DNA of 20,000 bases from an uncultured virus (IMG/VR IMGVR_UViG_3300033170_000307) (IMGVR_UViG_3300033170_000307), one strand, 5' to 3'; positions 3,486 to 19,912 are shown, counted from the stretch's first letter. Made by a program: numbers and translations. The notes: a model not told the origin generated them from the sequence alone.

Positions 3486-3736
3486 GTGTAGCCAGGTGTT
3501 GGCGTTAGAGGCTGAGCTGCTGCTGGGGGTGGGTGGGGATGATTGCGGATGGGGCATGAACTGAACGGCAATCATCCTGGAGCCAAGTTTCCTGAACGGT
3601 CTTGGCGTTAGAGCCCAGCCCCTGCCCCCGCTGCTGTGCGCAGGATTGCGGGTTGGTCTTGATATGAACGGCCCGTCTCTCGGGCCCATGTTTTCCTGTC
3701 TACACTCTACGGCGCACGATTGCGGGTAGGAATAGC

Positions 3737-3764
3737 AACGGGCCGGCCCGAAGGCCGGCCCGTT
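3737..3764 (-). terminator. hairpin after the 113-aa gene
   Basis: 12-bp perfect stem with a C-UUCG-G loop on the minus strand; weak U tract. Confidence 0.6.
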
Positions 3765-3773
3765 CGTCCGTGG

Positions 3774-4115
3774 TTAGGCGACGGCCTCCGCGTTGGCGCC
3801 GAGTGCGATAGCGGCCCGTTCGTGGGGATAGCGGCCGAAGTTGGCATTGAAGACTTCGGCTTGCGCGCGGATGAAGCTGAGGGCGCGCGGCCCGGTGAAG
3901 TTGGGGTATCGACCGAAGGTGCGCCGATACCAGTTGCGATTGGCGTGGTCATCGCCATAGGGCGCGACGGCGAGGAGGTCCAGCGGCACGCCGGTGTAGA
4001 CTTCGGCGACGGGTTTCGGGTGATTCTTCGACGGCCCCTGCTGGTACAGGTCACCCTTGCGGAAATTGACCTGCGCGTTCGGCTTGTAGTACACTTGGTT
4101 CGGGTTCGTGCGCAT
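3774..4115 (-). CDS. hypothetical protein, 113 aa
   Basis: Fills one motif A unit; purine-rich leader; followed by a hairpin. Confidence 0.75.
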   Translation of the reverse strand: MRTNPNQVYYKPNAQVNFRKGDLYQQGPSKNHPKPVAEVYTGVPLDLLAVAPYGDDHANRNWYRRTFGRYPNFTGPRALSFIRAQAEVFNANFGRYPHERAAIALGANAEAVA

Positions 4116-4278
4116 AGCCTATCACTTCCCTATGGTGTGTTGTACGTCCGTCCTACACTACTGTGCGCATGATTGCGGGCCGACCTCCTCGGCCCTACAG
4201 AAGAGAGTTTAGCATAGCAGAAGAGTTGTGTAAACTACTTTCTTACACTACGTATGCGCACGATTGCGGCCCGGTCGT

Positions 4279-4338
4279 CTACCCAAAGAGTGCGGCGAGT
4301 CCTAACATCACGAGTCCGATGAGTGCGAGTGCTATCAT
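4279..4338 (-). CDS. 19-aa hydrophobic microprotein MIALALIGLVMLGLAALFG
   Basis: GGAGGT 5 nt before the ATG; fills one motif A unit; translated by hand. Confidence 0.6.
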   Translation of the reverse strand: MIALALIGLVMLGLAALFG

Positions 4339-4533
4339 AGGCGACCTCCGAAGTGTAGTTGGTACACTACCCGGCGCACGATTGCGCGGCCCTTGGCGTT
4401 AGAGCCCAGCCCTGGCTCACGGCGGCGCTGGATGATTGCGTTTGTGACTTTCGCTGAACGGCACTGAACAGGGAGCCATGGAATCAGGAGGGGCCGAAGT
4501 CCCTCCCTACATCACTGGGCGCACGATTGCGGG

Positions 4534-4797
4534 CTACTCTGCGTCGAGCTCTACCCGTCCGGTCATATCGGTGAGCTTGCGCTGGCGCAGGATTGCGATG
4601 CGCGTCTGCGCGTGCTGGGCGCGCAGGGCGGCGACCGCCTGCGTGAAGGCGACAATGAGCACGGCGGCGGCCAGGGCGCAGCAGCCGGGGATGATGTCGC
4701 CCCGCTGCAGGTCGTGGGCCTTGAGGAATTGGTAGTAGTGGACCGAGAAGACACCGACCAGTGCTGTGATGATGTGGCTGATGATGAGTCGTGTCAT
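4534..4797 (-). CDS. two-TM membrane protein, 87 aa (MTRLIISH...)
   Basis: GGAGG RBS; two hydrophobic stretches; stop abuts motif A. Confidence 0.7.
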   Translation of the reverse strand: MTRLIISHIITALVGVFSVHYYQFLKAHDLQRGDIIPGCCALAAAVLIVAFTQAVAALRAQHAQTRIAILRQRKLTDMTGRVELDAE

Positions 4798-5056
4798 GCG
4801 TCTGCCCTCCGGCATGTTTTTGGTGCGTACACAGCTATGCGCACGATTGCGGGGGCGGGGGCGGGGGCGACGGTGCCCCCGGCTCCCCGGCACGACTTCC
4901 ATACGCTTCCGCCACCACTTACCCCGCAGGGCCTCTAGAAGGCGGGTGGCGGACAACGTAGCAACACTCAGCGCATAGGCATCACCTTTGGTAGGGGGAG
5001 TTGCCGGAGGTTCGCGTTCGCTTACTCCGTACACTACTCTGCGCACGATTGCGGCC

Positions 5057-5125
5057 CTACTGCCGGGGCGGCGGGTAGCAGTAGGACATCAGGTTGAGCA
5101 GCAGCGCGACTATGTACATCGGCAT
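5057..5125 (-). CDS. 20-22-aa microprotein (MP)MYIVALLLNLMSYCYPPPRQ
   Basis: GAGGTG upstream; stop 2 nt from motif A; translated by hand. Confidence 0.45.
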   Translation of the reverse strand: MPMYIVALLLNLMSYCYPPPRQ

Positions 5126-5156
5126 CACCTCACACGACTGGGCGCACGATTGCGGC

Positions 5157-5237: not shown

Positions 5238-5369
5238 AGGGCATCACATCATGCCATTGTGCGCATGATTGCGGCCGGCCGCAGTGCCTGGCGTTAGAGC
5301 CCAGCCCCTGCCCCCGCTGCTCTGCGCACGATTGCGGTTAAGACTTCGATTGAACGGCTGAACAGAAGA

Positions 5370-5403
5370 GCCAAGGGAAAGCAGGTGTGAGCCTTCCCTT
5401 GGC
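5370..5403. terminator. hairpin beside motif B copy 4
   Basis: GCCAAGGGAA...TTCCCTTGGC inverted repeat. Confidence 0.4.
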
Positions 5404-5752
5404 CCTCCGGTGTACCTGTGTGCCTTCCCCGGAGAGGGCGGAGGCGTTGAGTTAGGCGCCTCCGGCAGCCGCTAGTCTGCGATGCCGGGACGGTGGGTAG
5501 CTCACCTTTGCAGGTGCCCGAACCTCTCTAGAACCCACCAAGTTCATCTTGGGATAGGCAGCAGGATTACTCTGTACACTACTCTGCGCAGGATTGCGGG
5601 TGGCTTTGGCGCTGGTCTGGCGCCGCTTTTGAGCCCGCTTTTCGCCCGATTGAGACGGCGAGCGTCTCACGCGATGTTTCTGGGCGCCACCCGCTTCATA
5701 CACTACTGTGCGCATGATTGCGGGGGAGGGGTTGTCTCCCCCGCGCACCTGT

Positions 5753-6145
5753 CTACATACTGTCGGCGGCGACCATTCCGGTCGTGGCCACGCCGAAGCG
5801 CGCCTGCAAGACCTCGGCGTGCTTCTCTTGCGCGCGGCGCTGGTCGTGCTCCACGGTGCGGCGGTACCCGGTGTCATGCTTCATGCGATAGTCGTGCAGC
5901 GCCTGCCACGCGGTCTTGTAGACCGCTTCCGTTTCGGCGGTGCGGTTGCGCATCATGGCGTGGAAGGCGCGGACTTCCGCCTGCTTGAGGTCGTGCACCG
6001 GGTCCGCTTCCGCTTCCGCCTGCCGGGCGGCGAGGTGGCGGCGCTTGGAGGCGGTGAGCCGAGCGCAATACTGCTCAAACTCCCCCTCCTCATACTGGAA
6101 GTTGTGACGGGAGTCGGGCTTGAGGGTCTTCTGCACGCGTTTCAT
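5753..6145 (-). CDS. hypothetical helical protein, 130 aa
   Basis: AGGTGAGG RBS; fills one motif A unit. Confidence 0.75.
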   Translation of the reverse strand: MKRVQKTLKPDSRHNFQYEEGEFEQYCARLTASKRRHLAARQAEAEADPVHDLKQAEVRAFHAMMRNRTAETEAVYKTAWQALHDYRMKHDTGYRRTVEHDQRRAQEKHAEVLQARFGVATTGMVAADSM

Positions 6146-6332
6146 GTTGCCTCACCTGTTAGGTGGTATTGGTCAGGTTGACACCTGACACTACTCTGCG
6201 CACGATTGCGACACAATTACCCCTTGGGATGATTGGCTCTGGCGTTAGAGCCCGGCGCCCCGGCACGGCAGGGGCACGATTGCGGATGTGTGCAATCGAT
6301 TGAACGGTCTTGAACTGGGACCCATGAAATGG

Positions 6333-6358
6333 AAAAGCCCCCGGCTCTCACCGGGGGC
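6333..6358 (-). terminator. intrinsic terminator
   Basis: GCCCCCGG/CCGGGGGC stem followed by UUUU on the minus strand. Confidence 0.7.
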
Positions 6359-6386
6359 CCTTCCGCAATCATCTAGCCGCGCCGCA

Positions 6387-6533
6387 TCAGCGTGCCTCCT
6401 TGGGTATGAGTGGCTGCACACGCCACTTCGGGCGCGTGATGTTCTGGTTCGGGCGGTTCCACGCGCAGCCAACGCTGCAGCCGACTTGGCCGCAGCGCGG
6501 GCACTTGCCTTCGTCACTCTGCCTGTAGGGCAT
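6387..6533 (-). CDS. 48-aa Cys-rich protein (CPRC...CSVGC)
   Basis: GGAGGT RBS, ATG 6533. Confidence 0.65.
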   Translation of the reverse strand: MPYRQSDEGKCPRCGQVGCSVGCAWNRPNQNITRPKWRVQPLIPKEAR

Positions 6534-6564
6534 ATCCAACCTCCAGAGTAGCTGGGTTCTTACA

Positions 6565-6861
6565 CTACTCTGCGCAGGATTGCGGCTTCGCCCGCCAGTG
6601 CCTGTCGCGCACAAGCGTGCGCATACGCAGGGCGGGGTGCTCCGTGATGCGTTCGTCTACCATCCGCGCTTCTTCGTCGCTGGCAGTGAAGACCAGGACC
6701 TCCGGCTGATTCTCCCAGCCGTGCTCGTGCTCCCAGGTGGGGTTCGGCCTCTTCAGGCCGGCCAGCAGGACCTCCCAGTCCACCGGCTCCTGCACCGGGA
6801 AGGTGATGCCCGTCTTGTCATAGCCGGTGCTGCCCGTCGCCCGTATGTATCGCCGTCTCAT
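6565..6861 (-). CDS. hypothetical protein, 98 aa (MRRRYIRATG...)
   Basis: GGAGGT RBS; reads through the motif A core and stops at its TAG. Confidence 0.75.
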   Translation of the reverse strand: MRRRYIRATGSTGYDKTGITFPVQEPVDWEVLLAGLKRPNPTWEHEHGWENQPEVLVFTASDEEARMVDERITEHPALRMRTLVRDRHWRAKPQSCAE

Positions 6862-6925
6862 GATGCAACCTCCACAGCGTAGTGGGTTCTTACACCACTC
6901 TGCGCACGATTGCGGGGCAGAGCCC

Positions 6926-7366
6926 CTACCCGTTGGGGTCGGGGGGCTCCACCTCTGCCGGGATGATTTCGCAGTAGACCTCATCGAGTTCGCCCTCGTC
7001 ATTCAGTTCGTCGGGGCGGTGCTCCTGAATCCACTCCTCCATGATTCTGTAGCACTCCTGTTCGGCGTGCGCCGGCATCACGTTGCTGCAGAAGACCGCG
7101 ACCGTGAGCTTGACGTAGCCGCTGCCGATGTGGAACATATAGGCGGGGTCGGGCTCGGGGAAGTCGGGCGTCTCGCTGGCGCGCTGCTTGAGCCATTCAT
7201 CGCGCGCGAGATTGCGGCGCCGGGCGTACTCTGCGCCGCGCTCCCATGAGGGCAGTTCGTCCAGGTCCTTGCCGCCAGGGAAGGGTACTTCGTCGCCGGC
7301 CTGATTCAGGTAAATCATGGCGACCGCCTGCCGCGCTTCGTCGCTGTGCAGTCCGGGTGTGGGCAT
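6926..7366 (-). CDS. acidic hypothetical protein, 146 aa
   Basis: GGAGGT RBS; fills one unit. Confidence 0.8.
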   Translation of the reverse strand: MPTPGLHSDEARQAVAMIYLNQAGDEVPFPGGKDLDELPSWERGAEYARRRNLARDEWLKQRASETPDFPEPDPAYMFHIGSGYVKLTVAVFCSNVMPAHAEQECYRIMEEWIQEHRPDELNDEGELDEVYCEIIPAEVEPPDPNG

Positions 7367-7420
7367 GTGAGACCTCCAGAAGTGAGTGGTTACACTCCTA
7401 TGCGCACGATTGCGGCCGCC

Positions 7421-7759
7421 CTACGACGGCGGCCAGATGTCGTAGCAGCGGGTATTGCCGCAGCGCCCCACAATGAGGTGCAGGGGAGCGAGCGCCGGGT
7501 ATTCGGGGAAGCCGTAGAGCGTGCAGAAGACCGCCCGCATGACATCGGGCGTGCCACGGCGCAGCTTCTGATTGCGCTTCGTCGCTTCGGGGTGCTCCCA
7601 GACCTGTTTCTCCTCAGGCGTCCACGTATGGCGGCCCGACTCGATGCGGAAGCCCGCGTTCGTCAGAGCATCAATCGGGTGGATGATGTGGCCGGGCGCC
7701 AGTTCTTCTGTCTGCTTGAGTGCGGCCAGCGCAGCCGCGAGCGCTTCGTCGTAGGACAT
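7421..7759 (-). CDS. hypothetical protein, 112 aa, CxxC...CxxC
   Basis: GGAGGTCGCATC-ATG; CTLY and CGRC motifs in the C-terminal part (only one full CxxC). Confidence 0.75.
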   Translation of the reverse strand: MSYDEALAAALAALKQTEELAPGHIIHPIDALTNAGFRIESGRHTWTPEEKQVWEHPEATKRNQKLRRGTPDVMRAVFCTLYGFPEYPALAPLHLIVGRCGNTRCYDIWPPS

Positions 7760-8142
7760 GATGCGACCTCCACAGTGTAGTGGGTACACTCCTCTGCGCA
7801 CGATTGCGGGGCACACGCCGACAGCCACTCTTTCTCCCCGTGCCTCTGCTTCGCCTCATGAGGGGCACTCCACAGAGCGAACACTTGGGAGCGAGAGGAT
7901 TGGCCTGCCGGCGTCTGCCTCGCCATCTGGCGTTAGACCTGGGCCCCTGGTCCACACGTCTGCGCATGATTGCGGGTCGGATTACGATTGAACGGCAACT
8001 GAACGGGGACCTAGAAAACTGCGACCGGACGGCGCACTGGGCATTGCTGCTCCCGCTGCTACGCCCCTGTAGCCGGCTACGGGGTTCGCTGCTGTTACTC
8101 GGGATGCGCCGTCCGCTCACATCTCTATGCGCACGATTGCGG

Positions 8143-8469
8143 CTACCCCTCGTCGCCGAGGGGCACCACTATCATCACGCCACTGAGCACGAGCACCGGG
8201 GTGGGCTCGGGCACGCCGTAGACGTGGGCATACGTCTGCAGCGCGGGGTCGGTGCTCAGCAGGCTCACGTCGCGTACCCAGTCCTTGCCACTCTCACCGA
8301 TGATAGTGCAGAGGTGGGCGCAGCACTGCACGGGGCAGGTGAAGCGCGCGGCGTTGCAGCGCACGCACACTTGGTGCATTCGGTCGAGCTTGGCCAGTTC
8401 GTCAACGTCCGGGCCGTTCAGGTAGCCGTGGTTCCTGACAATCTTCTCCAGTAGCTTCTGCAGGGGCAT
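8143..8469 (-). CDS. Cys-rich hypothetical protein, 108 aa
   Basis: GGAGGTCGCATC-ATG; CVRC...CPVQCC; stop directly abuts motif A. Confidence 0.75.
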   Translation of the reverse strand: MPLQKLLEKIVRNHGYLNGPDVDELAKLDRMHQVCVRCNAARFTCPVQCCAHLCTIIGESGKDWVRDVSLLSTDPALQTYAHVYGVPEPTPVLVLSGVMIVVPLGDEG

Positions 8470-8541
8470 GATGCGACCTCCCGGTATGGGGTTGGGGGCA
8501 GGTCACCCTGCCCCCTATACTACTCTGCGCACGATTGCGGG

Positions 8542-8766
8542 CTACTTGATGGCGTACTTCGCGTGGAAGCGCTCGGTGTGGCTGAAGCTCTGGGTGATGC
8601 AGCGGCCGATGCGCACGGCCCCCGCGTTGCCCACGAAGACCTTGCGGTCCTCGCTCATCTTCGGGTGCGTGAAGCAGCGGTACTTGCGCCCTCTGGTCTG
8701 GGTCTCGGTGTACCCGAGTTCCTGCAGCTTGGCGATGACCTGCTCCGTCTTGGTCAGCTTGGCCAT
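8542..8766 (-). CDS. basic hypothetical protein, 74 aa (MAKLTKTEQ...)
   Basis: GGAGGT RBS; stop abuts motif A. Confidence 0.75.
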   Translation of the reverse strand: MAKLTKTEQVIAKLQELGYTETQTRGRKYRCFTHPKMSEDRKVFVGNAGAVRIGRCITQSFSHTERFHAKYAIK

Positions 8767-8842
8767 GGGTGCGACCTCCATAGATGTGATGGATACGTGG
8801 GGAGCACTGCGGCTCCCCACGATACTCTGCGCACGATTGCGG

Positions 8843-9127
8843 CTACCGTATCGTGCGACCGGGGCGCTGGTCCACAGCCTCCTGAATGTGATGGCCCACG
8901 TCGTCGCCGAGTTGCTCGGCGATGGGCTTGGTCTTGTCGTCGCCTGCAGGCAGCCCGGCCTTCTCGCGGAAGGCGGACTCCACTGCGCCGATAACGCTGC
9001 TGGTGGCATAGACGTGCCCCTTCTGGCGGGGGAACTTCTCGCCGCGCAGGGTCACCTGCATACCCTGAAAGACGCCCATGTACCAGACCTCACGGACGCG
9101 ACACGCTTCCTTCTGAATGGGTCTCAT
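8843..9127 (-). CDS. hypothetical protein, 94 aa (MRPIQKEA...)
   Basis: GGAGGT RBS; stop abuts motif A. Confidence 0.75.
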   Translation of the reverse strand: MRPIQKEACRVREVWYMGVFQGMQVTLRGEKFPRQKGHVYATSSVIGAVESAFREKAGLPAGDDKTKPIAEQLGDDVGHHIQEAVDQRPGRTIR

Positions 9128-9327
9128 GACGACCTCCCTGTCGGGGTGTGTGCTACACTGTTGTGCGCACGATTGCGGCAGGCTTGTCGTGTACCGCCAA
9201 CGGCCTTCCTGCTGGTCGGTGCCAACCGTAGCCAGTTGGAAGTGGCAATGCCATTGACGATACCCGACAAGCCTGGCGTTAGAGCCAGGCCGGCCGCTCT
9301 CCACACATCTCTGCGCAGGATTGCGGC

Positions 9328-9356
9328 AAGGGAGGCCGCCTGAACGGCCTCCCTTT
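9328..9356. terminator. hairpin inside motif B copy 7
   Basis: AAGGGAGGCCG-CCTGAA-CGGCCTCCCTT, just past the stop at 9363. Confidence 0.55.
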
Positions 9357-9362
9357 CGGGAC

Positions 9363-9806
9363 CTAGAATGTGGGAACCGTCTCGAAGCCGCGCCCCGTGA
9401 AGATGGGGACGCTCGGCTCCGGCTCCTCCTGCTCCTCCCACAGGTGCCGGGGCTGCAGCGGCCACCCGCTCTTGTCATAGAGTTGGCCGCAGTTGTCGCA
9501 GCAGGACGTGAAGTCATCGAGAGTCACTTCGGCTCTGCACACTACACAGCGCGCGATTGCGGGCTCGACGTAGCTCCATTCATACTTCTGCACGTAGATG
9601 GGGAAGCGCTTGGCGCCCGTGATGAAGTCGGTGACGACCTTGCGATAGTTGTCAAGCCACGTCTGGGACTTGCCCTCGAAGTCCACACAGCCGCGCTCGT
9701 CGGACTTGAAAGCGAAGCCGGAGCCGCGCCCGTGCACATCGCACGCCAGACTGTACTCCACGCAATCGACCGGCTTGGCCTCACTGATGATTTCCGCCTG
9801 GGGCAT
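9363..9806 (-). CDS. zinc-ribbon-like protein, 147 aa
   Basis: GGAGGT RBS; CVVC...CDNC. Confidence 0.8.
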   Translation of the reverse strand: MPQAEIISEAKPVDCVEYSLACDVHGRGSGFAFKSDERGCVDFEGKSQTWLDNYRKVVTDFITGAKRFPIYVQKYEWSYVEPAIARCVVCRAEVTLDDFTSCCDNCGQLYDKSGWPLQPRHLWEEQEEPEPSVPIFTGRGFETVPTF

Positions 9807-9841
9807 GGTACGACCTCCTGAGTTCATGGTTCGTGCTTACA

Positions 9842-10015
9842 CTACTCTGCGCACGATTGCGGAGACAGGACTGGCTTGCCGGCGCGCACGACTCGGTAAG
9901 TGCCGCTGAATTGGGGGTGCTTGCCTGCCACGGCCAGCCGCGCATAGCGCATGTCGGACTCGTCGCGGATGGTGGCGAAGTCCATATAGGGCTCCAGGAC
10001 CACATCATCGGGCAT
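9842..10015 (-). CDS. 57-aa protein MPDDVVLEPY...PQSCAE (not in the ORF track)
   Basis: GGAGGT RBS; translated by hand; stops at the TAG inside motif A. Confidence 0.65.
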   Translation of the reverse strand: MPDDVVLEPYMDFATIRDESDMRYARLAVAGKHPQFSGTYRVVRAGKPVLSPQSCAE

Positions 10016-10087
10016 GGTACGACCTCCTGTGAATCAGGGTGCGGGGAGGGTTGCCCCTCCCCGATACTTCTCTGCGCACGATTGCGG

Positions 10088-10369
10088 CTACTCGATGGGC
10101 GGCGGGACCGGGATAGACCATGCCGCTTGGATGACGTTGGCCGGAGCGTCCGGGTACTTGCGGTCGGGAATCTCGAAGCCCTTGGCGGCGAAGTTGAGTT
10201 CGCCATTGGGCAGGGTGGGGACTTCCACCACGTCACCGCGCCGGGGCACGTTCAGGTCGTTGGCCGCGACCTCGTAGAAGTGGCCCTCCTGCGTGAGTAG
10301 GCGCACACCCAACATACCAAAGTCATTGCGACTCTCTGAGACGCCGAAGCACTTCATCTCGACTGGCAT
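10088..10369 (-). CDS. hypothetical protein, 93 aa
   Basis: GGAGGT RBS; stop abuts motif A. Confidence 0.75.
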   Translation of the reverse strand: MPVEMKCFGVSESRNDFGMLGVRLLTQEGHFYEVAANDLNVPRRGDVVEVPTLPNGELNFAAKGFEIPDRKYPDAPANVIQAAWSIPVPPPIE

Positions 10370-10443
10370 GAGACGACCTCCTGTGAGACAGGGTGCGGGG
10401 GCGGTTGCCCGCCCCCGATACTACTCTGCGCACGATTGCGGGG

Positions 10444-10803
10444 CTACCGTTCCCGCATCTGCACGTCATCGAGCGAGGGCGTATCCTCGCAGGTGCATTC
10501 GCTGTCATAGTTGCCGCAGCGGCGGCAACGGCCATCGCGGCCCCCGTCTTCGTCTTCGTCGCTCTTGGGCTTGGCGGGCTGCCATTCGCCGTCAATCAAG
10601 ACGCCGAGGAAGGTGCGCCCCCCGCTGCCCCCGCTGCCCCCGGTGGCGTAGACGTTGAAGTGGTCCTGCCCGCCGCCGTGGTGGGCGACAACCTCGATAC
10701 CGCAGTGCCAGCCGTTGACGTGGGCGGTGAGCCCCGTCTGCTTGTCACCGAGCCGCGACGCTTCGCCACGACCGCCCCGCAAAGTCCCTCTGAACTGTGC
10801 CAT
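10444..10803 (-). CDS. Gly-rich hypothetical protein, 119 aa, C-terminal Cys cluster
   Basis: GGAGGT RBS; MAQFRGTLRGGRG...; CRRC...CTC. Confidence 0.75.
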   Translation of the reverse strand: MAQFRGTLRGGRGEASRLGDKQTGLTAHVNGWHCGIEVVAHHGGGQDHFNVYATGGSGGSGGRTFLGVLIDGEWQPAKPKSDEDEDGGRDGRCRRCGNYDSECTCEDTPSLDDVQMRER

Positions 10804-10876
10804 GTGCGACCTCCCGTGAATTGGGGTGCGGGGAGGGTTGCCCCTCCCCGATACTACTCTGCGCACGATTGCGGGG

Positions 10877-10948
10877 CTACTTCCACGCTGCGCCCAGACC
10901 CTCCTGCATGATGTCCTGCACGGCCTTGACCTGAGCGGCGACGCTCAT
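10877..10948 (-). CDS. 23-aa peptide MSVAAQVKAVQDIMQEGLGAAWK
   Basis: TAATG overlap with the upstream stop; stop 2 nt from motif A. Confidence 0.45.
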   Translation of the reverse strand: MSVAAQVKAVQDIMQEGLGAAWK

Positions 10949-11157
10949 TAGGACACCACCTGGCCCTGGCGGGCGGCGCGGTTGCGGACGCGGCGGCCTG
11001 CGGCGCGGTGGTTGAGCATGGCCTGCGTGTCGGCGAAGGTGAGCTTGCGGGCGTTGCCGTTGCGGTCCTTCGGGGTGCGGCGCTGGCTGCAGGAGCTGCA
11101 GTTGGGCGTGCCGTTGGGGCGGGAGCAGGTGTTCGCATTGCACGTCGAGATGACCAT
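10948..11157 (-). CDS. Cys-containing basic protein, 69 aa
   Basis: GGAGGT RBS; C-x4-C...CSSC. Confidence 0.65.
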   Translation of the reverse strand: MVISTCNANTCSRPNGTPNCSSCSQRRTPKDRNGNARKLTFADTQAMLNHRAAGRRVRNRAARQGQVVS

Positions 11158-11601: not shown

Positions 11602-11629
11602 GATGCGACCTCCATGCTGTGATGGGTGC

Positions 11630-12191: not shown

Positions 12192-12701
12192 TCAGCCATA
12201 GACTTCGGACTGCGCCCGCTTGTGGAAGTCTTCCGGCGTCTCGCTCCAGTGCTGCTTGAGAAGCCAGTCCCGGCGCTTGCCGTCGCGTACCTGGTAGGCC
12301 AGCAGGCCACAGTAGGCGGTGATTTCGTAGCCCAGCCAGTACATGGTGATTGCGGCGTTGCCGCAGAAGTCCCCGGCGCGGCTCATGCTGTACTGCGGGC
12401 CGGGAGGTGTGGCGAGTTGCGGGTCAACGTCCCTCGATTCGCTGGTGGTCTCGACGCCCGTGGCATACAGGCGCTCGATGACCCAGAGCGTATCGCCAGA
12501 CAGCAGCTTGTAGCAGGTCTGCTGGCGCGGGTAGCTGCTGTAGTAGTAGATGCCTGCGGCGTCGTGCACGTGAGCGTGCAGCGTCTCGGCGCTCTCCAGC
12601 TTGGCCGTCGCCATCTGGCCCCTGGCCTGCTGTGCCGTGATGTAGCTCTTGGTGCCGTCTGGCCCCTCCAGCAGGTAGACCTTGCGCGTGTACGTCCTCA
12701 T
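12192..12701 (-). CDS. hypothetical protein, 169 aa (MRTYTRKVY...)
   Basis: GGAGGT RBS; stop 2 nt from motif A. Confidence 0.8.
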   Translation of the reverse strand: MRTYTRKVYLLEGPDGTKSYITAQQARGQMATAKLESAETLHAHVHDAAGIYYYSSYPRQQTCYKLLSGDTLWVIERLYATGVETTSESRDVDPQLATPPGPQYSMSRAGDFCGNAAITMYWLGYEITAYCGLLAYQVRDGKRRDWLLKQHWSETPEDFHKRAQSEVYG

Positions 12702-12873
12702 GAGCGACCTCCCGTGAATTGGGGTGCGGGGAGGGTTGCCCCTCCCCGATACTACTCTGCGCACGATTGCGATGGGCCTGGCGTTAGAGCCCGGCCGGCC
12801 GGCGCCCGCGCGTGCGCGCGATTGCGGGTTGGGAATCGTCTGAACGGCAACAGAACAGGGAGCCAGGAATACG

Positions 12874-12910
12874 AAAAGCCCCCGGCCATTGCGTCTTCAG
12901 GCCGGGGGCT
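12874..12910 (-). terminator. intrinsic terminator
   Basis: GCCCCCGGCC/GGCCGGGGGC stem followed by UUUU on the minus strand; beside motif B copy 8. Confidence 0.65.
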
Positions 12911-13225: not shown

Positions 13226-13525
13226 TCAGGAGTTTGCTACGGCGTCCACGTCCGTGACGTGCAGGCGCTTGCCGCGCAACTGCAGGCGCACGTGGATGGG
13301 GAGCTTGGCGGGCTGGCCGATGGCGCGGTACTTGACCGTGGCGCTGGTGTTGCCACTCGGGAGCACCAGAGCGTGCTTGCCCGTGGTGGCCACGTCATCG
13401 AGCTTGTAGAGCGCATCGCTCAGGACGAACTGCTCGGGCAGGGCGGTGCCGGGCTTCTTGATGTGCTCGGCTACGTCGGTGAGGCTACGGAAGACCAGAG
13501 CCAGCGTCGGCTTCTTTCTGGGCAT
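13226..13525 (-). CDS. hypothetical protein, 99 aa (MPRKKPT...)
   Basis: GGAGGT RBS; stop abuts motif A. Confidence 0.75.
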   Translation of the reverse strand: MPRKKPTLALVFRSLTDVAEHIKKPGTALPEQFVLSDALYKLDDVATTGKHALVLPSGNTSATVKYRAIGQPAKLPIHVRLQLRGKRLHVTDVDAVANS

Positions 13526-13577
13526 GTTCAACCTCCACAGCGTGTAGTGGGTTACACTACTTGGCGCACGATTGCGC

Positions 13578-14042
13578 CTATGCTATCGCGACCAGCGGGG
13601 TGCCGTCAACCTGTTTCGTGCTGGCGCTGGCCACAGCGGCGCGAGCGCGGAGCATGAGACCGGGTACGAACTTGGGCGCGCCCATGCCCGCAGGCACACC
13701 GGCGGCTTCCTGAACGGTGCCTTCGATGACCCGCAGGAGTAGGGGCTGGGTGTAGCCCACACGGTCCTCGGCCCATTGCAGCGTAAGGTCGTACATACTG
13801 TCGGTGTGAGTGGCCTTGGCGGTGAACGCGTCCAGCAGCGGAGCGCTATGCACAGTGCACAGGTACACGCCTTCCATGGTGCGGCCGTCTACGGTCAACT
13901 GCCGGGTGGAGCGAGCGTGTGGCGTGCGGGTGTACTCACGCATCCACGGTTCCAGCTTCTCGAACGGCACGAAGTAGTGCGCATGGCCGGAGCACAGCTT
14001 GCAGGTGTGCCTGGCCTGCCTCATCCGGGGAGGCATTGGCAT
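13578..14042 (-). CDS. hypothetical protein, ~154 aa, CxxC...CxxH
   Basis: Fills one unit; CKLC...CTVH; start uncertain. Confidence 0.7.
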   Translation of the reverse strand: MPMPPRMRQARHTCKLCSGHAHYFVPFEKLEPWMREYTRTPHARSTRQLTVDGRTMEGVYLCTVHSAPLLDAFTAKATHTDSMYDLTLQWAEDRVGYTQPLLLRVIEGTVQEAAGVPAGMGAPKFVPGLMLRARAAVASASTKQVDGTPLVAIA

Positions 14043-14118
14043 TGGGCATCATCCCTTCGGGGAAGAAGTGTGGGGGCAGGTCTCCCCGCCCCCTACATCT
14101 ATCGGCGCACGATTGCGC

Positions 14119-14649
14119 CTACTTCTCGGGGACGACCCACTCGTCCTCGGGCTCGAAGAGCCCGTCCTCGATGTCGTCGAGCTTGGTCAGGATGAAGTGG
14201 GTGATGCAGGTACCCTTGTCCTGCACCAATGCGGTGAAGTCCATCTGCAGCTTCGTCATGTTGCGAATGGTGGCGGCGGTGATGCTCTCCGGCTCGTGGC
14301 CCTCACGCTGCAGGACGAACTCAGCCTCGTCGGGCATGTCGGCGGGCAGGTTGATGATGCCCTGCTCCAGAGCCACCATGCTAAGGTTCCAGATAGCGTC
14401 ATGCACGCGCTTGACCTGCTCGCGCATCTGCCGGGCTTCCATCTGGACGCGCTCATAGCTGTCGCTCGGCGACCAGTCGTCGTTGGCACAGCCCTCTGCC
14501 AGCGCCATCCGCTTGGCCCGCTGCCAAAGCGACTTGGCCGGGAAGAGTAGCCCGGCGATGGTGGCGGCGAACTCCTTGCCGAACTGCTCGCGCAACACCT
14601 CGCCATTGGGCATGATGTTGACGCTGCCGATGACCTTCTCTCCACTCAT
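14119..14649 (-). CDS. hypothetical protein, 176 aa
   Basis: GAGGT RBS; stop abuts motif A. Confidence 0.8.
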   Translation of the reverse strand: MSGEKVIGSVNIMPNGEVLREQFGKEFAATIAGLLFPAKSLWQRAKRMALAEGCANDDWSPSDSYERVQMEARQMREQVKRVHDAIWNLSMVALEQGIINLPADMPDEAEFVLQREGHEPESITAATIRNMTKLQMDFTALVQDKGTCITHFILTKLDDIEDGLFEPEDEWVVPEK

Positions 14650-14724
14650 GTCTCGTACCTCGTTAGGGTTAGCGGTCGGGGGCGGTCGCCCGCCCCCGTT
14701 ACACTTCTGTGCGCACGATTGCGC

Positions 14725-15171
14725 CTACAGCCAGCCGCGCACCCGCTTCATCAGCAGGCAGTCATCGTGCCGCCGCCCAGACCCCTTGCGGTGCAGGTAG
14801 TTCTGGACGAAGGCATTGAAGGTGATGCCCACGCTCTGCCCGTACTTCGCAACCGTGTCGAAGTCGTGACCCTCGACCAGTTGGCAGAGGCAGTATATGC
14901 TCTTCTCGGTGACCTCGAAGAAGTCGCCGTCGTCGTCGGTGGGGAAGCCGGCCCAGTCGGGGTCAGTCTCAGCCGCCATCTGGCCGGGGTGCTTCAGTTC
15001 GTGAGCGAAGCCAAGGTCCAGCCGGTCGCCCTCGCGGGCTGCGAGCAGGGCCTGCACGTCGCTGGGGTCGAGGTGCTCGCCTTCCTTGAAGTTGACGATA
15101 CACCAGACCTTGTAGTTGCTCCCGTCGCGGTAGAGCACGTTCATCTGTACGCGATGCTTCTGTTCAGGCAT
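14725..15171 (-). CDS. hypothetical protein, 148 aa
   Basis: GGAGGT RBS; stop abuts motif A. Confidence 0.8.
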   Translation of the reverse strand: MPEQKHRVQMNVLYRDGSNYKVWCIVNFKEGEHLDPSDVQALLAAREGDRLDLGFAHELKHPGQMAAETDPDWAGFPTDDDGDFFEVTEKSIYCLCQLVEGHDFDTVAKYGQSVGITFNAFVQNYLHRKGSGRRHDDCLLMKRVRGWL

Positions 15172-15204
15172 AGGCAGGTGACCTCCGGCCGATGAAAGGT
15201 TGTA

Positions 15205-15708
15205 CTACTCAGCGCAGGATTGCGCTTTGGCCTTCTCCCCGATGGCCTCGATGGCGTCGGTCGGCTCTTGGCTGGCGCTGAATTGCCTCAGACACAGGAG
15301 ACCGTGCTCGATGCTGGCGAACGCGCTGGCGATGAGGTAGCGCTGGCTGACACCATCCCCCTCCTTGACTTCCTGCTGCACCTGCCCGGCGCTCAGGCGG
15401 TAGGGCTTGAGCCAGAGGCTCAGGCCCGCTTTCAGTTCATCGAGGTTCTCAATCATGACGTGCACATTGGTCTCGGCGCTGAAGCGGCCCCCGAAGGTGC
15501 ACGAGACGTACTCAGGCGAGACGTAGACCTGCTGCTCGGCGGGCACGTCTTTGAGGTGGCTGTACCAACTGCCATGACTGTGGTCCCAGACCCGGTAGCC
15601 CAGCGGCTGGGTGCGGCACTTCTCACAGAAGCACAGGGTCGCGGCGTGGTAGCAGTGCACGGAGCACGGCACCTGGGGTGTGCAGGACTTGCGGCGCCGG
15701 ACTTTCAT
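15205..15708 (-). CDS. hypothetical protein, 167 aa, Cys/His-rich N-terminus
   Basis: GGAGG RBS; CSVHC...CFCEKC; stops at the TAG inside motif A. Confidence 0.75.
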   Translation of the reverse strand: MKVRRRKSCTPQVPCSVHCYHAATLCFCEKCRTQPLGYRVWDHSHGSWYSHLKDVPAEQQVYVSPEYVSCTFGGRFSAETNVHVMIENLDELKAGLSLWLKPYRLSAGQVQQEVKEGDGVSQRYLIASAFASIEHGLLCLRQFSASQEPTDAIEAIGEKAKAQSCAE

Positions 15709-15756
15709 GTTGCGGCCTCCTCGGTAGGGTTGTACTCCTCAGCGCACGATTGCGGC

Positions 15757-16239
15757 TCAGTAGTCCATCGAAGCCAGTGCCCCGCGCACCCGGCGCTCAG
15801 GGTCAGGCGAGCGCATATCATCCAGCGCCTGCTGGTGCTGCGCCCGGTCCTTGGCATTGCTGTCGAGGATGACGTTGCACAGTTCCACGAACTTCTCGAT
15901 GGCCGGGGCCTTGGACCTGAAGACGAAGACGGTACGGGTCCCTGCCGGGTCGTTCGGCACCCGGTGGATGCGCTTGCGCAGGAAGGCCTTCTGCCTCTTG
16001 TCGGCCAGCCCGAACCGGTCGCGGGCTTCGTACTGCTTGAGCACCTTGCGTACTTCTTCGGCCCGCATTTCGGGCCCGACAGTCCAGAGTTCAGTGGGGC
16101 AGTTGACATGCGCGAGGGAGGGGCGAAAGCCGGAGTTGATGCAGCCGTAGGGTTCCGGCCCGCCGAGGATGGCACCTCTCTTCAGGCGACCATGCTTGCG
16201 CACGTCATCAGCAGTGAAGGGCTTGCGTTGCTGAGACAT
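15757..16239 (-). CDS. basic hypothetical protein, 160 aa
   Basis: GGAGGT RBS; stop abuts motif A. Confidence 0.8.
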   Translation of the reverse strand: MSQQRKPFTADDVRKHGRLKRGAILGGPEPYGCINSGFRPSLAHVNCPTELWTVGPEMRAEEVRKVLKQYEARDRFGLADKRQKAFLRKRIHRVPNDPAGTRTVFVFRSKAPAIEKFVELCNVILDSNAKDRAQHQQALDDMRSPDPERRVRGALASMDY

Positions 16240-16454
16240 GGGGGGCGACCTCCATTGGATGATGGGTACACTACTGTGCGCACGATTGCGGAGCGGGCGG
16301 CCTGCCGGGATGTCGGTCGGCAGGCCCCCGCCGCGCTGTAGTCCCTACCAAGGACAGCTTGATGGCGTTAGAGCCGCGCCCGGCGCGCCGGCAGGGTGGC
16401 AGGGAACCCTTTGGGAGGCCCTGAACGGCCTCGCTCTTGGAGCCATGATTTCCG

Positions 16455-17096
16455 TTAGCCGCTCATCGCGTCAATGAGCATCTGCATGACTTCGGGCAGT
16501 TCCTTGCCGCAGTGCGGGCAAGCGTAGCCCTCGTGGTTGATTTCGCCACCCATGTCGCCGTCGTCCATGCTGTCGTAGCTGTACTCGAAGCGCCCATCCA
16601 CCAGTTCTTCGCACTCCAGCGTCACGCCCTAGTCGGTCGTCACCTTGTCGGCTTCGAGCGTGTCGAGCACGTCGCCACAGTGCGGGCACTTGGGGTAGCC
16701 CGTCTCGTCGTCCACGTCGAACTTGAACTCGGCGGCTGCGTGCTTGAGAGCGATGTCGAGGATGTGCTGCACGTCGTTCATGTGGCCGCGCAGAGCCATG
16801 ATGAAGCAACCGAGGACCTCGGTGCCCTTGTTGCCCCTCGCACCCTGCCACGCGCTGTCTACGACCTTGGCGAGCAGGTGGTCGGCCAAGCGCTTGCCCC
16901 GCGCCACGTTGCTCGGCTCTTCGATGTCACGAGTGGTCACCTCGAAGTGCGAGATGGCCTCCAGAGCGTGCTGGACGCTGGCCGGGAACTGGATGATGTC
17001 GCCGGAGAGCGAGCTCCGGTCATTGGACGCGATGCGCTCCGCCTCACGAAGCACTTGGTTGACCTTGCGTTCATCTGCGGGTGGTCTCTTGGGCAT
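16455..17096 (-). pseudogene. zinc-ribbon protein (213 codons) with an in-frame TAG at 16629-16631
   Basis: AAGGAGG RBS; CPHC...KVTTD*GVTLECEE...YACPHCGKEL...MSG-TAA continues in frame. Confidence 0.7.
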
Positions 17097-17231
17097 GTAG
17101 CCCTCCTTGGTAGGGGAATTTGATGGGGGAGGGAGGAGTGCGCACTCAACGAGCCGTGGGTAGCTGCTAGGACTACCAAGTCGTCTCGCTGTCGCCCTCC
17201 CCATCCAATACTCTGCGCACGATTGCGGCGC

Positions 17232-17975
17232 CTACTCGGTAGCAGGCCAACCCTCGCGCGATGTCTGGTACAGGTCGTCGGGGTCCCCCGCCGCCTCCAG
17301 CGCTTCCATCCGGTCGCGCTCCGTCACCATCTCCTCCGCGTCCTCGTCATAGCGCTCAGGAAGCCCGTACATCTCTCCCATGTAGGCGCCTTGGGAACTG
17401 GAGCGCCCTCCGAACTCGCTGCTCAGCAGGAAGAAGGGCACTGTGATGAACTCGTCGCCTTGGTACAGCCGGATTTCGGCGTCCCAGAAGGTCTCGTCCA
17501 CGTAGCCGCTGCCGCTGTGCGAGCAGAAGACCACGACTTCGAGGCCCTCGGCGTCCGCCAGCATCTTGAGCGCTCCGATGAAGATGCTGTAGTACGGTTC
17601 GGCATAGTCTTCCCGTAGCTCCATCTTCTCCCACTCGAAGCCCAGGTCTTCGATGTAGAACTCGTCTTCCTCCTGCAGGACTTCGAGCACCACGTTTAGG
17701 TACTCGTGGACAGCCGCCAGCTTGAACTCCTGGGCCTTGTCGAAGCGCCAGCGCAGCAGACGGCACAGTTCAGCAGAGCCACCCAATTCCATCATCTGCC
17801 CGAGGCACGACGCGTTGGAGTAGCTGCGCCGCTGCTTGTCCGTGGGCTCCTTGCCCTTCTCCTTGGGCCAGCGCTCGATAAGTGCGTGCGCCCGCCGTTG
17901 GAGCTTCTGTGTCTCGTGCGCCGCCAGCAGCCAGTGCCGCGCAAAGGTGCCGGCCGGCAAAGTCAGGTCGCTCAT
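17232..17975 (-). CDS. acidic hypothetical protein, 247 aa
   Basis: AAGGAG RBS; fills one unit. Confidence 0.85.
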   Translation of the reverse strand: MSDLTLPAGTFARHWLLAAHETQKLQRRAHALIERWPKEKGKEPTDKQRRSYSNASCLGQMMELGGSAELCRLLRWRFDKAQEFKLAAVHEYLNVVLEVLQEEDEFYIEDLGFEWEKMELREDYAEPYYSIFIGALKMLADAEGLEVVVFCSHSGSGYVDETFWDAEIRLYQGDEFITVPFFLLSSEFGGRSSSQGAYMGEMYGLPERYDEDAEEMVTERDRMEALEAAGDPDDLYQTSREGWPATE

Positions 17976-18058
17976 GTCATGCTCCTTGGTAGGAAGTAGT
18001 GTATGGTGTCGTCCGCCGACACCCTACACCCCTCTGCGCACGATTGCGGCGTGGTATC

Positions 18059-18778
18059 TCAAGCATTGCGCACTTCCCACTCCGCCGCATAGGCCGTGCG
18101 GTAGCAGTCGACCCATGCTCCCGGCTGCCAGTGGTCGGGTACAAAGCGTGGCCACCCGGCCGGGTCGTCGAGAAGCTCGCCTACCGCAATGTCGGCCGCC
18201 TCCTCGGCGTCGCGCAAGTCCTCGTGGCGGTGAGGCCAGTCCTCGGCCGCCTGCGCGATGGCCATGGCCTGCGGCTCCCGCTGGTCTTCATCGGCCTTGC
18301 GCGGCCATGTGACGCCACCGGGCCATTCAACGTGCGAGGCGTCCCCTCGTGCGGGCGCCTCGTCGTCGCTAAGGTACCAGACGGGCTCACAGTCATCATT
18401 GTCGGCCGTGGCGCGGAGCACCACATACCCGTCTTCCGCGTCGAGTATCTCGCTAACCACAGCCAGCTCGTCGGCTGTCAGTTCGCGGTCCGTGCCCGGC
18501 TCTGCGTTCTGCAGGGCCATCAGTTCGTCGTATTGCTCCGTGCTCTCCGTCACGAGTGCCCTGTGCATCATGCTCGCCTCCCGCCGCCCGTGGCGGCTAG
18601 TGTGTTGTTCCACTACGCGTCGCCGTTCTGCACGCGCCCTGCCTCTCCTCTTCAGCGCGTGATGATTGCCCATACGACGAACAACAGCCCTACTGCGGTG
18701 TATGCTGCAACCTGAGCGACGATGCGGTGGCCGGGGTCGGCCATCCAGCCTGAAAAGAACTGGTCTGCTACTGGCCAT
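18059..18778 (-). CDS. hypothetical protein; start 18778/18781 or internal start 18571 (170 aa)
   Basis: GAGGAG near 18781 and GGGAGG before ATG 18571; the acidic part from 18571 looks clearly coding. Confidence 0.7.
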   Translation of the reverse strand: MASSRPVLFRLDGRPRPPHRRSGCSIHRSRAVVRRMGNHHALKRRGRARAERRRVVEQHTSRHGRREASMMHRALVTESTEQYDELMALQNAEPGTDRELTADELAVVSEILDAEDGYVVLRATADNDDCEPVWYLSDDEAPARGDASHVEWPGGVTWPRKADEDQREPQAMAIAQAAEDWPHRHEDLRDAEEAADIAVGELLDDPAGWPRFVPDHWQPGAWVDCYRTAYAAEWEVRNA

Positions 18779-18868
18779 CACTCCTCGTGGGTTGGTATAC
18801 TACTTCTTCAGACGAAACGTGTCAAGCTATTTCTGACACCCTACACCACTCGGCGCAGGATTGCGGGC

Positions 18869-19459
18869 CTACTTCTTGCCCGCCCGCTTCTCCAAGATAC
18901 GTTCGAGAAGCGCCGACAGTTCGTAATCGGGCACGCAGACGGGGCGGGCCTTGGGGTCGGGGTCATCCCATGCGATGGGCAGTCCGGTGTTGCGGTCGCG
19001 CACGTAGAAGATGAAGTGCGGGTCCTGCGCGGACAAAGCGCGGGCCGCGTCAATGTCCTTGGCGTACTTGCCGCAGGCGTCACACTTCTGGATGGTGCGC
19101 CGGAACAGGCCCTCGGACGGGTCCACGTCCGTCAGGATGCCGGAGCCGTCGCAGGAGCCGCACACGTCCGTCTCGCGCTCCAGTGCGCCTTCGAGGCTCA
19201 CGTCGTGGGTGGGGTATTCCTGCGTGATGTCGGACCAGATGCGCACCATCGGGTGGCCGTCATACTGCTCGATGAGGATGGGGTCGCCATAGCCATCGAA
19301 CTCCACGCGGATGCCCATGCGGGTGACGCGGATAGCCACGTCCACGCCGGGGCCTACCATGTCCGCGCTGTCGTTCTGCTCGTCCAGCCGGGTGCGGATG
19401 GTGATGGGCTGGTTCGGCAGGACCCGGCCCAGGCGAATGTCTTTCTCGTTCTGGTGCAT
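18869..19459 (-). CDS. hypothetical protein, 196 aa, with CxxCxGxG...CxxC zinc finger
   Basis: AAGGAGGT RBS; CGSCDGSG...CDACG. Confidence 0.8.
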   Translation of the reverse strand: MHQNEKDIRLGRVLPNQPITIRTRLDEQNDSADMVGPGVDVAIRVTRMGIRVEFDGYGDPILIEQYDGHPMVRIWSDITQEYPTHDVSLEGALERETDVCGSCDGSGILTDVDPSEGLFRRTIQKCDACGKYAKDIDAARALSAQDPHFIFYVRDRNTGLPIAWDDPDPKARPVCVPDYELSALLERILEKRAGKK

Positions 19460-19541
19460 GAAGCACCTCCTTGGTAGGTTGTACTCCTATGCGCACGATT
19501 GCGGACAGCCCCCACCCGATGCGTTGGGCAGGGGCCGGCCG

Positions 19542-19859
19542 CTACTCCTTCACGACGAACGCGGGTCCGTCCTTGGGCAGCAGGTGGTTAGGCAGGTCGG
19601 GGTCATCATCTTCGGGCACGTTGAAGCCCGTCATCATGATGCCGTCCGTGCTGAACTCGATGGGTTTGTCATACAACGCTTCGTTGTTGACGGTGTGACC
19701 CTCGCCGATTACGTCGTCGCCATAGGCGGCGACCAGCGAGCGCACGGTCGTCCCGTTGTCCACCGCCGGCGCCTCGATGCCGTTCTCGGTCATCACCAGC
19801 AGTTGGGCCAAGCCGGAGCCGTGGCTCCCGGCGAACCCCACGATGCGTCCCTTTGTCAT
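19542..19859 (-). CDS. acidic hypothetical protein, 105 aa
   Basis: GGAGGT RBS; fills one unit. Confidence 0.75.
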   Translation of the reverse strand: MTKGRIVGFAGSHGSGLAQLLVMTENGIEAPAVDNGTTVRSLVAAYGDDVIGEGHTVNNEALYDKPIEFSTDGIMMTGFNVPEDDDPDLPNHLLPKDGPAFVVKE

Positions 19860-19912
19860 GGTTGACCTCCAGAGTGGTTCTTACACCACTGTGCGCACGA
19901 TTGCGGGGCTAT

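Follow-up and report, generated by a model that had tools for sequence, protein, structure and literature searches.

A one-way 25-bp element in an array of small genes: a candidate transcription start signal in an uncultured wastewater phage

What does a 25-bp element do when it stands, always in the same direction, in front of one small gene after another? The question is raised by a 20,000-nucleotide stretch of DNA from an uncultured virus (IMG/VR IMGVR_UViG_3300033170_000307), referred to here as the window, in which such an element, motif A, fronts about 31 small genes that bear no visible relation to one another. On balance we judge it probable, with considerable room for doubt, that motif A is a lineage-specific transcription start signal belonging to an early block of the host-takeover type in a ~215-kb uncultured wastewater phage. 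The repeated signal also serves as a recombination seam, and the array behaves like the promoter(early)-stem-loop (PeSL) regions of T4-type phages.

The array, its units and their turnover

A pattern scan of metagenome contigs showed that the window corresponds, in reverse complement, to bases 1955-21954 of a contig (L001) of 215,187 bp with a GC content of 63%. Positions are given in window coordinates unless marked L001, and 21,954 bases of the contig were seen. The array occupies the first ~18 kb of the contig, limited on one side by the contig start and on the other by a terminator with a 14-bp stem (Table 1). The pattern CCGCAATCnTGCGCAgAGtAGTGTA occurs 44 times on the minus strand of the window and never on the plus strand, where chance would give 0, and a search for the 25-mer with up to three mismatches found 28 matches, all on the minus strand, with none in 200 dinucleotide-preserving shuffles. 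With the core expression GCAATC.TGCG the count is again 44 against 0, running from 3627-3651 to 19882-19906; 43 of these copies lie within 3701-19906 and one at 3627-3651. Four are part of a larger repeat, element B, which leaves the 40 standalone copies in a single orientation that the initial annotation had counted. Between the window end and the first bases of the contig there are three further forward copies and one degenerate copy.

The position matrix has the consensus CCGCAATCgTGCGCAgAGtAGTGTA, with eleven core positions invariant by construction, the copies having been collected with that expression, and with no conservation from -30 to -3 (28 bases upstream). The conserved block is contiguous over 25 bp and consists of a GC-rich invariant part followed by a tail in which 4 of 11 positions are G or C. 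An imperfect palindrome, CGCA-N4-TGCG, had been pointed out in the core and is present, but has just 4 bp per arm, and folding gives a 4-bp stem only. A GC hairpin of at least 7 bp starts 0-5 nt past the tail in 11/47 copies and a hairpin ends just upstream in 9/47; some stem-loop is found at ~20 of the 47, the others having none by the criterion of at least 7 bp. A scan of the whole 215-kb contig, as had been proposed, gives 13 matches for the exact 24-mer form, all in the first 17.8 kb. Allowing one mismatch adds nine forward and three reverse weak sites in the 21,954 bases.

Outside this contig the element is scarcely found. The 25-mer pattern gave 0 loci in IMG/VR; the 17-mer core pattern gave 60 loci there, and 185,579 species genomes gave five motif loci, all single-copy and with no arrays (the loci were not scanned for weaker copies). 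We estimate that these single hits are near chance level and treat them as noise. In the collections searched the motif is not a host regulon site. A search of the published literature for the motif strings returned nothing relevant to the motif, and the genome paper of phiCbK, a 215-kb high-GC phage, holds no similar motif.

Each unit is laid out as stop codon, motif, leader (20-50 nt), GGAGGT and ATG, as first described. The cargo genes are all on the minus strand and the 31 coding open reading frames (ORFs) are marked by a G+C content at third codon positions (GC3) of 0.79-0.97. The start codon falls 43-74 nt past the core G in 27 of the 31, with a Shine-Dalgarno (SD) sequence GGAG(G) between, and in 21 of the 31 the upstream stop codon lies within the motif or no more than 7 nt upstream of it. 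The motif's own TAG is the stop of three genes, which gives them the C-terminus ...QSCAE. The claim of nearly one copy per gene holds for the ~31 copies that front genes; the others of the 44 comprise two before mini-ORFs of 20-22 residues, the four in B elements, one inside a gene (4574-4598) and the rest before non-coding stretches.

Two observations on the units stand apart. The stop codons of the 31 array genes are TAG (21), TGA (7) and TAA (3); TGA normally dominates at 63% GC and a TAG majority is unusual. The mini-ORFs (4270-4332 and 5057-5125, minus strand) encode hydrophobic products of ~20-22 residues, which may be tiny membrane peptides; both have an SD and a motif copy in front and end in a TAG that directly precedes the next motif.

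The cargo proteins are, as had been noted, mutually dissimilar: an all-against-all blastp comparison gave no pair at E<1e-3. In 36 of the 38 proteins scanned no Pfam or PHROG family passed the thresholds. The two exceptions are an HNH homing endonuclease encoded outside the array and the 119-aa phrog_5927 protein (10444-10803, minus strand); one further protein has a sub-threshold match to the DnaJ zinc finger. The phrog_5927 protein is the sole cargo protein with relatives among isolated phages, sharing ~45-50% identity over its first 66-73 residues with hypothetical proteins in 56 Mycobacterium phage records. The 247-aa protein (17232-17975) has no relative among viral contigs and only two in a protein search, at 70-81% identity, with the extra length C-terminal. 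A megablast search of 8.3 kb against a phage collection and a tblastn search with four window proteins gave no match. The phage, or close variants of it, is present in 20 runs from 13 studies of sludge, wastewater and digesters. Judged by the HNH endonuclease, the one PHROG family in common with mycobacteriophages and the gene style (dense ORFans, strong SDs) the element looks like a phage, and the small protein shared with mycobacteriophages is a weak hint of an actinobacterial host.

The initial annotation had also pictured the array as a set of modular cassettes and had suggested comparing gene order in relatives. Near-identical relatives do differ by whole cassettes, and the junctions fall within the motif or next to it. 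One case is L006, a contig of 1,050 nt from a different metagenome with ~98% identity to window 9230-7660: exactly the leader and gene 8143-8469 are missing from it, and the junction is inside the motif. We also aligned the contigs of four runs (X17, X18, X3 and X5) to the window. In X17 and X18 a skip of 530 nt leads from the motif at 15731-15755 to that at 15201-15225 (joint 15197>15728, sides 124-138 nt); shared 31-mers, a possible cause of mis-joining, are absent there and only nine letters are ambiguous. X3 has a skip of 2,037 nt from the motif at 6187-6211 to 5 nt past that at 4154-4178 (joint 4149>6187), and has window 7378-8489 replaced by ~720 other letters. A further skip, 8540>8784, is found in X17, and upstream of the motif at 7785-7809 a stretch of 119 nt has given way to one of 16 nt in L006, X17, X18 and X5. 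In X5 a different gene start stands behind the retained leader at 8489, which is a loose end.

When joints with sides of at least 30 nt are counted together with L006, 10 of 18 endpoints lie no more than 10 nt from a motif, against ~12% expected (binomial 1e-5); the other eight are in B elements, genes or leaders. We excluded joints of which one side is just the shared 21-25-nt motif (3520>3755, 3999>10989, 4852>16271, 6586>8489, 9327>18025 and 15257>17494), and joint 3655>4279 (side 22) was left out of the count. The joints that go back, 8017>4501 and 19860>9293, have sides of 35-37 nt and are ambiguous. Contig depth and coverage holes were left aside in judging expression or absence, save as a hint.

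The crossover sites vary: inside the motif in L006, 3-5 nt past the tail at 15197>15728 and 4149>6187, within the leader and directly ahead of the SD in X5 (8489), and in B elements. Such variable points fit homologous recombination between repeats rather than a site-specific enzyme. The same 25-70 bases, repeated ~47 times in one direction, would allow ordinary recombination to delete, insert or replace cassettes of motif, leader and gene. The best explanation of the array's mobility is that it is a side effect of having one regulatory word in many copies. Independently of these variants, the 73-nt modules of motif, hairpin and SD leader at 10801-10873 and 12699-12771 are 99% identical with unrelated genes behind them, and the leaders at 10014-10086 and 10368-10440 are 79-89% identical to these modules. 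Near-identical leaders before unrelated genes suggest that regulatory modules are copied or kept while the cargo changes.

How the element may be read

Of the functions first proposed for the element, that of a promoter or operator is the one that the evidence favours, with the qualification that an ordinary sigma-70 promoter is excluded. The regulatory option is preferred because the block is compact and oriented, stands at a fixed distance before SD and ATG, has a leader too short for much else and is closed by a terminator at the block end. In the shortest units about 21-28 nt separate the motif end from the ATG, which leaves no room for a separate -35/-10 promoter, so that any start signal of their own would have to be the motif. 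A host sigma-70 promoter was ruled out by the lack of a conserved -35 and by the tail hexamer (positions 16-21), which reads TANNNT in only 16/47 copies (ANNNT in 25/47), and the ten sites of a sigma-70 consensus scan fall elsewhere than the motif. Sigma-54, ECF-type (extracytoplasmic function) and LexA-box identities were rejected for motif A and for element B, as the spacings, judged by eye only, do not fit.

The motif is a signal that resembles a promoter but is of a non-canonical and undescribed kind. A contiguous 25-bp block with one GC-rich and one AT-richer half has the shape of promoters read by phage-specific machinery. Specificity would reside in the GC-rich half, CCGCAATCnTGCGC(A), and melting and start in the AT-richer half, AGAGTAGTGTA. 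Transcripts would begin at or just past the tail. Their leaders would be 15-50 nt long and contain the SD, and about one unit in four would also have a GC hairpin close to the 5' end. On this view the element either is itself a promoter or defines one for a phage-specific factor. The host sigma-70 holoenzyme would probably not suffice to read it, and a more likely reader is an RNA polymerase, sigma-like factor or activator encoded by the phage.

Several points weigh against a start signal in this phage. The array has few terminators and one upstream promoter could in principle transcribe all of it. Contigs from the two metatranscriptome runs, in which starts are not visible, cross motif copies at 13240-13748, 6239-6812 and 18354-19378, as either read-through RNA or contaminating DNA would give. 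The tail departs from the consensus in the four copies that lie in B elements, and ~7 copies front no gene. Among the genes of the 22 kb seen we found neither an RNA polymerase nor a sigma factor or DNA-binding protein. A tail-to-leader covariation seen by eye failed a permutation test, a tail pairing no better with its own leader than with the leaders of other copies (p=0.78), and such hairpins were dropped as evidence of the start site, being uninformative on its position. Finally, the phage identity of the contig is thinly based, on the HNH endonuclease, one shared PHROG family and gene style.

Should transcription start elsewhere, for example at sigma-70-like sites, the motif might instead be an operator, or a stoperator-like site, where a phage protein, bound to the core behind each gene, would block transcription or set its timing. 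We regard this as unlikely, yet as the most serious of the alternatives. The sites are asymmetric, intergenic, oriented with transcription and often touch the stop codon (21/31 genes), features that match Cluster A stoperators as set out in the available part of their description (PMC4351075). The core holds the small dyad CGCA-N4-TGCG, a pure binding site could also occur as the core alone, as it does within B elements and the four reversed tandem units, and sigma-70-like sites do lie near some copies. On the other hand, the ~47 sites crowd into 18 kb and, as far as seen, into one block of 215 kb, where stoperators would be spread genome-wide; the L5-type stoperator word has 0 matches with up to two mismatches; and a roadblock needs neither a conserved AT-richer tail nor a fixed distance to SD and ATG. 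There are only ~4 decent sigma-70-like sites on the gene strand for more than 30 genes, and neither a repressor nor an integrase is among the proteins scanned in 22 kb. Beside motif copies, further sigma-70-like sites are found at 4206-4234 and 13580-13609; from their sequence, such sites are candidates for immediate-early promoters of the host polymerase.

A signal at the level of RNA is improbable. A long polycistronic early transcript would be cut or bound before each cistron, the motif acting in processing, stability or translation control; the contigs of metatranscriptome runs that span motif copies and the scarcity of terminators would suit such a transcript, GC hairpins past 11/47 copies could protect processed 5' ends, and a one-strand orientation suits RNA and DNA signals equally. 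The motif, however, is nearly structureless (a 4-bp stem) with no Rfam match, there is no copy-specific covariation of tail and leader (p=0.78), a distance to the SD of 20 to 100 nt is poor for translational control, and RNA sites would not easily account for the four reversed tandem copies at the contig end. Nor do we know of a phage RNase that recognises a linear site of 25 nt.

More doubtful still is the boldest combination, in which motif A has two roles, as a promoter read by an undescribed phage transcription machine and as the place where an active, phage-encoded cassette exchange operates, so that the ~18 kb would be an integron-like, continually reshuffled library of host-takeover genes common to jumbo phages of wastewater plants worldwide. 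A dedicated site-specific recombination or capture site, which would make the array an integron-like gene-cassette system of the phage and which the initial annotation had offered as an option, is very unlikely: cassette-sized gains, losses and replacements end in or beside the motif, the cargo consists of unrelated ORFans in one orientation and identical 73-nt modules of motif and leader precede unrelated genes, but the crossover points differ between cases, no tyrosine or serine recombinase (and no integrase) is among the 38 proteins scanned, and a 25-nt site with a 4-bp dyad has neither an attC-like hairpin nor a GTTRRRY core.

If a transcription start signal is the right reading, one compact regulatory word would have two jobs, outside the T4 group, in a high-GC uncultured jumbo phage: each accessory gene would come with its own expression signal and the genome with a built-in seam for swapping such genes. 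A word that is not of the sigma-70 type points to a phage-specific polymerase, sigma factor or activator, and its length and exactness would suffice for isolating that factor with it. The 25-mer would also be a handle for finding early genes of this lineage, likely with host-takeover or anti-defence roles. The rate and mechanism of ORFan turnover could be measured from the public data of the 13 studies, in which variants already differ by single cassettes.

Element B, the array borders and coordinates

Element B, the second repeat, is ~105 nt long and has ten copies in one orientation, nine in the window and one at L001 168-278. Its fixed boxes are GGCTCC..GCCGTTCA..N14..CCGCAATCnTGCGCA..N22..GGGCTCTAACGCCA, and it carries the motif A core without the usual tail. 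It lies in larger gaps, often past a terminator-like hairpin and directly before a standalone motif copy, and in other samples it is a rearrangement point too. No tRNA, Rfam match or consensus RNA fold was found for B, and a structured RNA was rejected on an RNAalifold result of a 3-bp stem only, with no covariation.

At the contig start, 1.8 kb past the window end, L001 1-166 consists of four 41-bp tandem units, each with a reverse-oriented motif and a small GC hairpin, pointing off the contig end; candidate explanations are a region of divergent control, a set of origin-like iterons and a longer repeat within which the assembly broke off. Between a 234-aa gene and the first motif copy there are at least four tandem 28-bp units, each with a 7-bp GC hairpin. 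A tRNA scan found none, and no Rfam family was above threshold, the three weak hits all falling on the terminator (3445-3515).

Past the other border lies the HNH homing endonuclease gene (1467-1958, minus strand), which has phage relatives and a sigma-70-like site at 2019-1991. It adjoins a 353-aa ORF on the opposite strand (2381-3442) with no family, no phage match and a local GC of 56%. The contigs of run X3 leave 2002-3335 uncovered. Both genes fall in the region 1335-3442, possibly a mobile insertion next to the array. Two exact 29-bp tandem units stand at 1156-1213, where the X18 and X3 contigs have a 29-letter gap, so that the copy number of the unit differs between samples.

Table 1. 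Positions of motif A copies, B elements and associated features in the window
Position	Strand	Feature	Gene or ORF behind; remarks
3627-19906	-	Whole array	44 motif copies, ~31 small ORFan genes, 9 B elements; runs 1.95 kb past window end to contig start
19913-20000		28-bp tandem hairpin repeats	Just upstream of window's first motif copy; continues L001 1925-2040
19882-19906	-	Motif	19542-19859 (105 aa)
19480-19504	-	Motif, tail GAGTACA	18869-19459 (196 aa)
18842-18866	-	Motif, then consensus sigma-70-like site	18059-18778
18797-18825	-	Sigma-70-like site	TTGACA-17-TAGTAT, perfect -35
18025-18049	-	Motif + GC hairpin	17232-17975 (247 aa)
17204-17228	-	Motif	16629-17096 (155 aa); long leader, 130 nt
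16355-16465	-	B element	Motif core degenerate
16267-16291	-	Motif	15757-16239 (160 aa)
15731-15755	-	Motif	15205-15708 (167 aa); cassette absent from runs X17/X18
15201-15225	-	Motif	14725-15171 (148 aa); upstream gene stops at motif's TAG
14700-14724	-	Motif + GC hairpin	14119-14649 (176 aa)
14094-14118	-	Motif + GC hairpin	13578-14042 (154 aa)
13553-13577	-	Motif	13226-13525 (99 aa)
12771-12881	-	B element	Past terminator-like hairpin + T run
12748-12772	-	Motif + GC hairpin	12192-12701 (169 aa); motif and leader 99% identical to 10801-10873
12165-12189	-	Motif	11630-12139 (169 aa)
11631-11655	-	Motif	11233-11601 (122 aa); upstream gene's TAA in motif tail
11208-11232	-	Motif + GC hairpin	ORF 10948-11157 (69 aa)
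10850-10874	-	Motif + GC hairpin	10444-10803 (119 aa, phrog_5927)
10417-10441	-	Motif + GC hairpin	10088-10369 (93 aa)
10063-10087	-	Motif + GC hairpin	9842-10015 (57 aa)
9838-9862	-	Motif, exact consensus	9363-9806 (147 aa)
9302-9326	-	Motif	Within B element
9266-9376	-	B element	
9154-9178	-	Motif	8843-9127 (94 aa)
8818-8842	-	Motif + GC hairpin	8542-8766 (74 aa)
8516-8540	-	Motif + GC hairpin	8143-8469 (108 aa); cassette missing in L006, replaced in X3/X5
8118-8142	-	Motif	Before non-coding stretch; second end of L006 deletion
7951-7975	-	Motif	Within B element
7920-8030	-	B element	
7785-7809	-	Motif	7421-7759 (112 aa); 119-nt upstream stretch replaced in L006, X17, X18, X5 (by 16 nt)
7391-7415	-	Motif	6926-7366 (146 aa)
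6891-6915	-	Motif	6565-6861 (98 aa)
6561-6585	-	Motif	ORF 6387-6533 (48 aa); upstream gene stops at motif's TAG
6232-6342	-	B element	Past terminator-like hairpin + T run
6187-6211	-	Motif	5753-6145 (130 aa); one end of 2037-nt X3 skip
5699-5723	-	Motif	No coding ORF behind
5575-5599	-	Motif	No coding ORF behind
5313-5337	-	Motif	Within B element
5281-5391	-	B element	
5250-5274	-	Motif	63 nt past B-internal copy
5131-5155	-	Motif	Mini-ORF, ~22 aa, ending 5057
5030-5054	-	Motif, exact consensus	No coding ORF within 140 nt
4828-4852	-	Motif	4534-4797 (87 aa)
4574-4598	-	Core-only copy (no tail)	Within gene 4534-4797
4508-4532	-	Motif + hairpin	Then B element
4386-4496	-	B element	
4363-4387	-	Motif	SD + mini-ORF, ~20 aa
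4245-4269	-	Motif	Then sigma-70-like site 4234-4206
4154-4178	-	Motif	3774-4115 (113 aa); other end of 2037-nt X3 skip
3701-3725	-	Motif	Preceded by 12-bp hairpin
3627-3651	-	Last motif copy	Within B element
3595-3705	-	B element	
3492-3602	-	B element	Last; degenerate core
3449-3480		Terminator-like hairpin	14-bp stem, closes array

Known systems compared

Three analogies had been put forward at the outset, of which one fits in part. Cluster K mycobacteriophage start-associated sequences are 13-bp sites a few bases upstream of the start codon that overlap the ribosome-binding site. From the end of motif A there are still 20-50 nt to the ATG, and the SD GGAGGT stands apart from it; this identity was ruled out. 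Integron attC sites are imperfect inverted repeats of 55-140 nt with RYYYAAC and GTTRRRY cores. The array resembles an attC array in being a one-way series of unrelated small cassettes split by a repeated site, but it is not an integron: no integrase (38 proteins, 22 kb) or attI was seen, the motif is not a folded attC and lacks its core, the cassettes appear to have expression signals of their own and the crossover is variable. The third analogy, to PeSL cassettes, is taken up below.

The terminal-redundancy host-takeover module of Bacillus phage SPO1 and the first-step-transfer region of T5 are genome-end blocks of numerous small early genes, all of which have a strong SD and a strong promoter of their own, served by host sigma-A or sigma-70. 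The block described here is likewise a set of many small genes with strong SDs at a contig end; its repeated signal, in contrast, is not of the sigma-A/sigma-70 type.

Stoperators, 13 bp long, occur throughout the genomes of temperate phages that have a cognate repressor, whereas the exact 24-mer form of motif A is confined to the first 17.8 kb of 215 kb. In the available text on Cluster A phages they are asymmetric, many per genome, placed in short intergenic spaces and oriented with transcription (PMC4351075), and motif A is similarly asymmetric, intergenic and on one strand (44 against 0). It differs in having a second conserved half and in giving 0 matches to the L5 word.

Promoters of the T7, T3 and SP6 class are contiguous blocks of ~23-25 bp, with an upstream specificity part, a downstream AT-richer initiation part and no -35/-10 split, and T7-type genomes have about 10-20 of them. 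Motif A shares the contiguous two-part block without a -35/-10 split, a likeness of shape, with no likeness of sequence evident; it differs in its ~47 copies in 18 kb, and no RNA polymerase gene lies in the 22 kb seen. For jumbo phages that encode RNA polymerases, the available sections of one source report that a computed motif upstream of early operons proved each time to be an early promoter (PMC7598289). Here, too, a phage-specific motif unlike the host consensus stands upstream of genes in a jumbo-sized genome. Those promoters are ~10 nt, AT-rich and centred at -10, while motif A has a 14-nt GC-rich core and occurs about once per gene.

The closest analogue, in behaviour, would be the PeSL cassettes of T4-type phages. 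As described in the accessible parts of the two sources, the PeSL layout is stop codon, promoter, stem-loop, SD and start, with ~50 per genome, before ORFans in plastic regions, and indels between relatives end in the element (PMC2839356, Arbiol et al. 2010; PMC4122927, Comeau et al. 2014). PeSL carry the E. coli sigma-70 -35/-10 consensus and an AT-rich upstream region, according to the first of these as available (PMC2839356). It is in this respect that the analogy fails: here there is a 25-bp block with a GC-rich core, no -35 and TANNNT in only 16/47 copies, so that the defining sigma-70 consensus is lacking. PeSL are further characterised by promoter and terminator activity and by excised mini-circles. 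Only ~20 of the 47 copies have a stem-loop, the position of which is variable in PeSL, and the genome has 63% GC with nothing T4-like found in the 22 kb seen. In behaviour, however, the analogy is right. Dozens of copies populate a plastic region and are placed from stop to start (21/31 stops, 27/31 starts), and relatives differ by the insertion, deletion or replacement of single genes, with ends in the element (L006; 10/18 endpoints).

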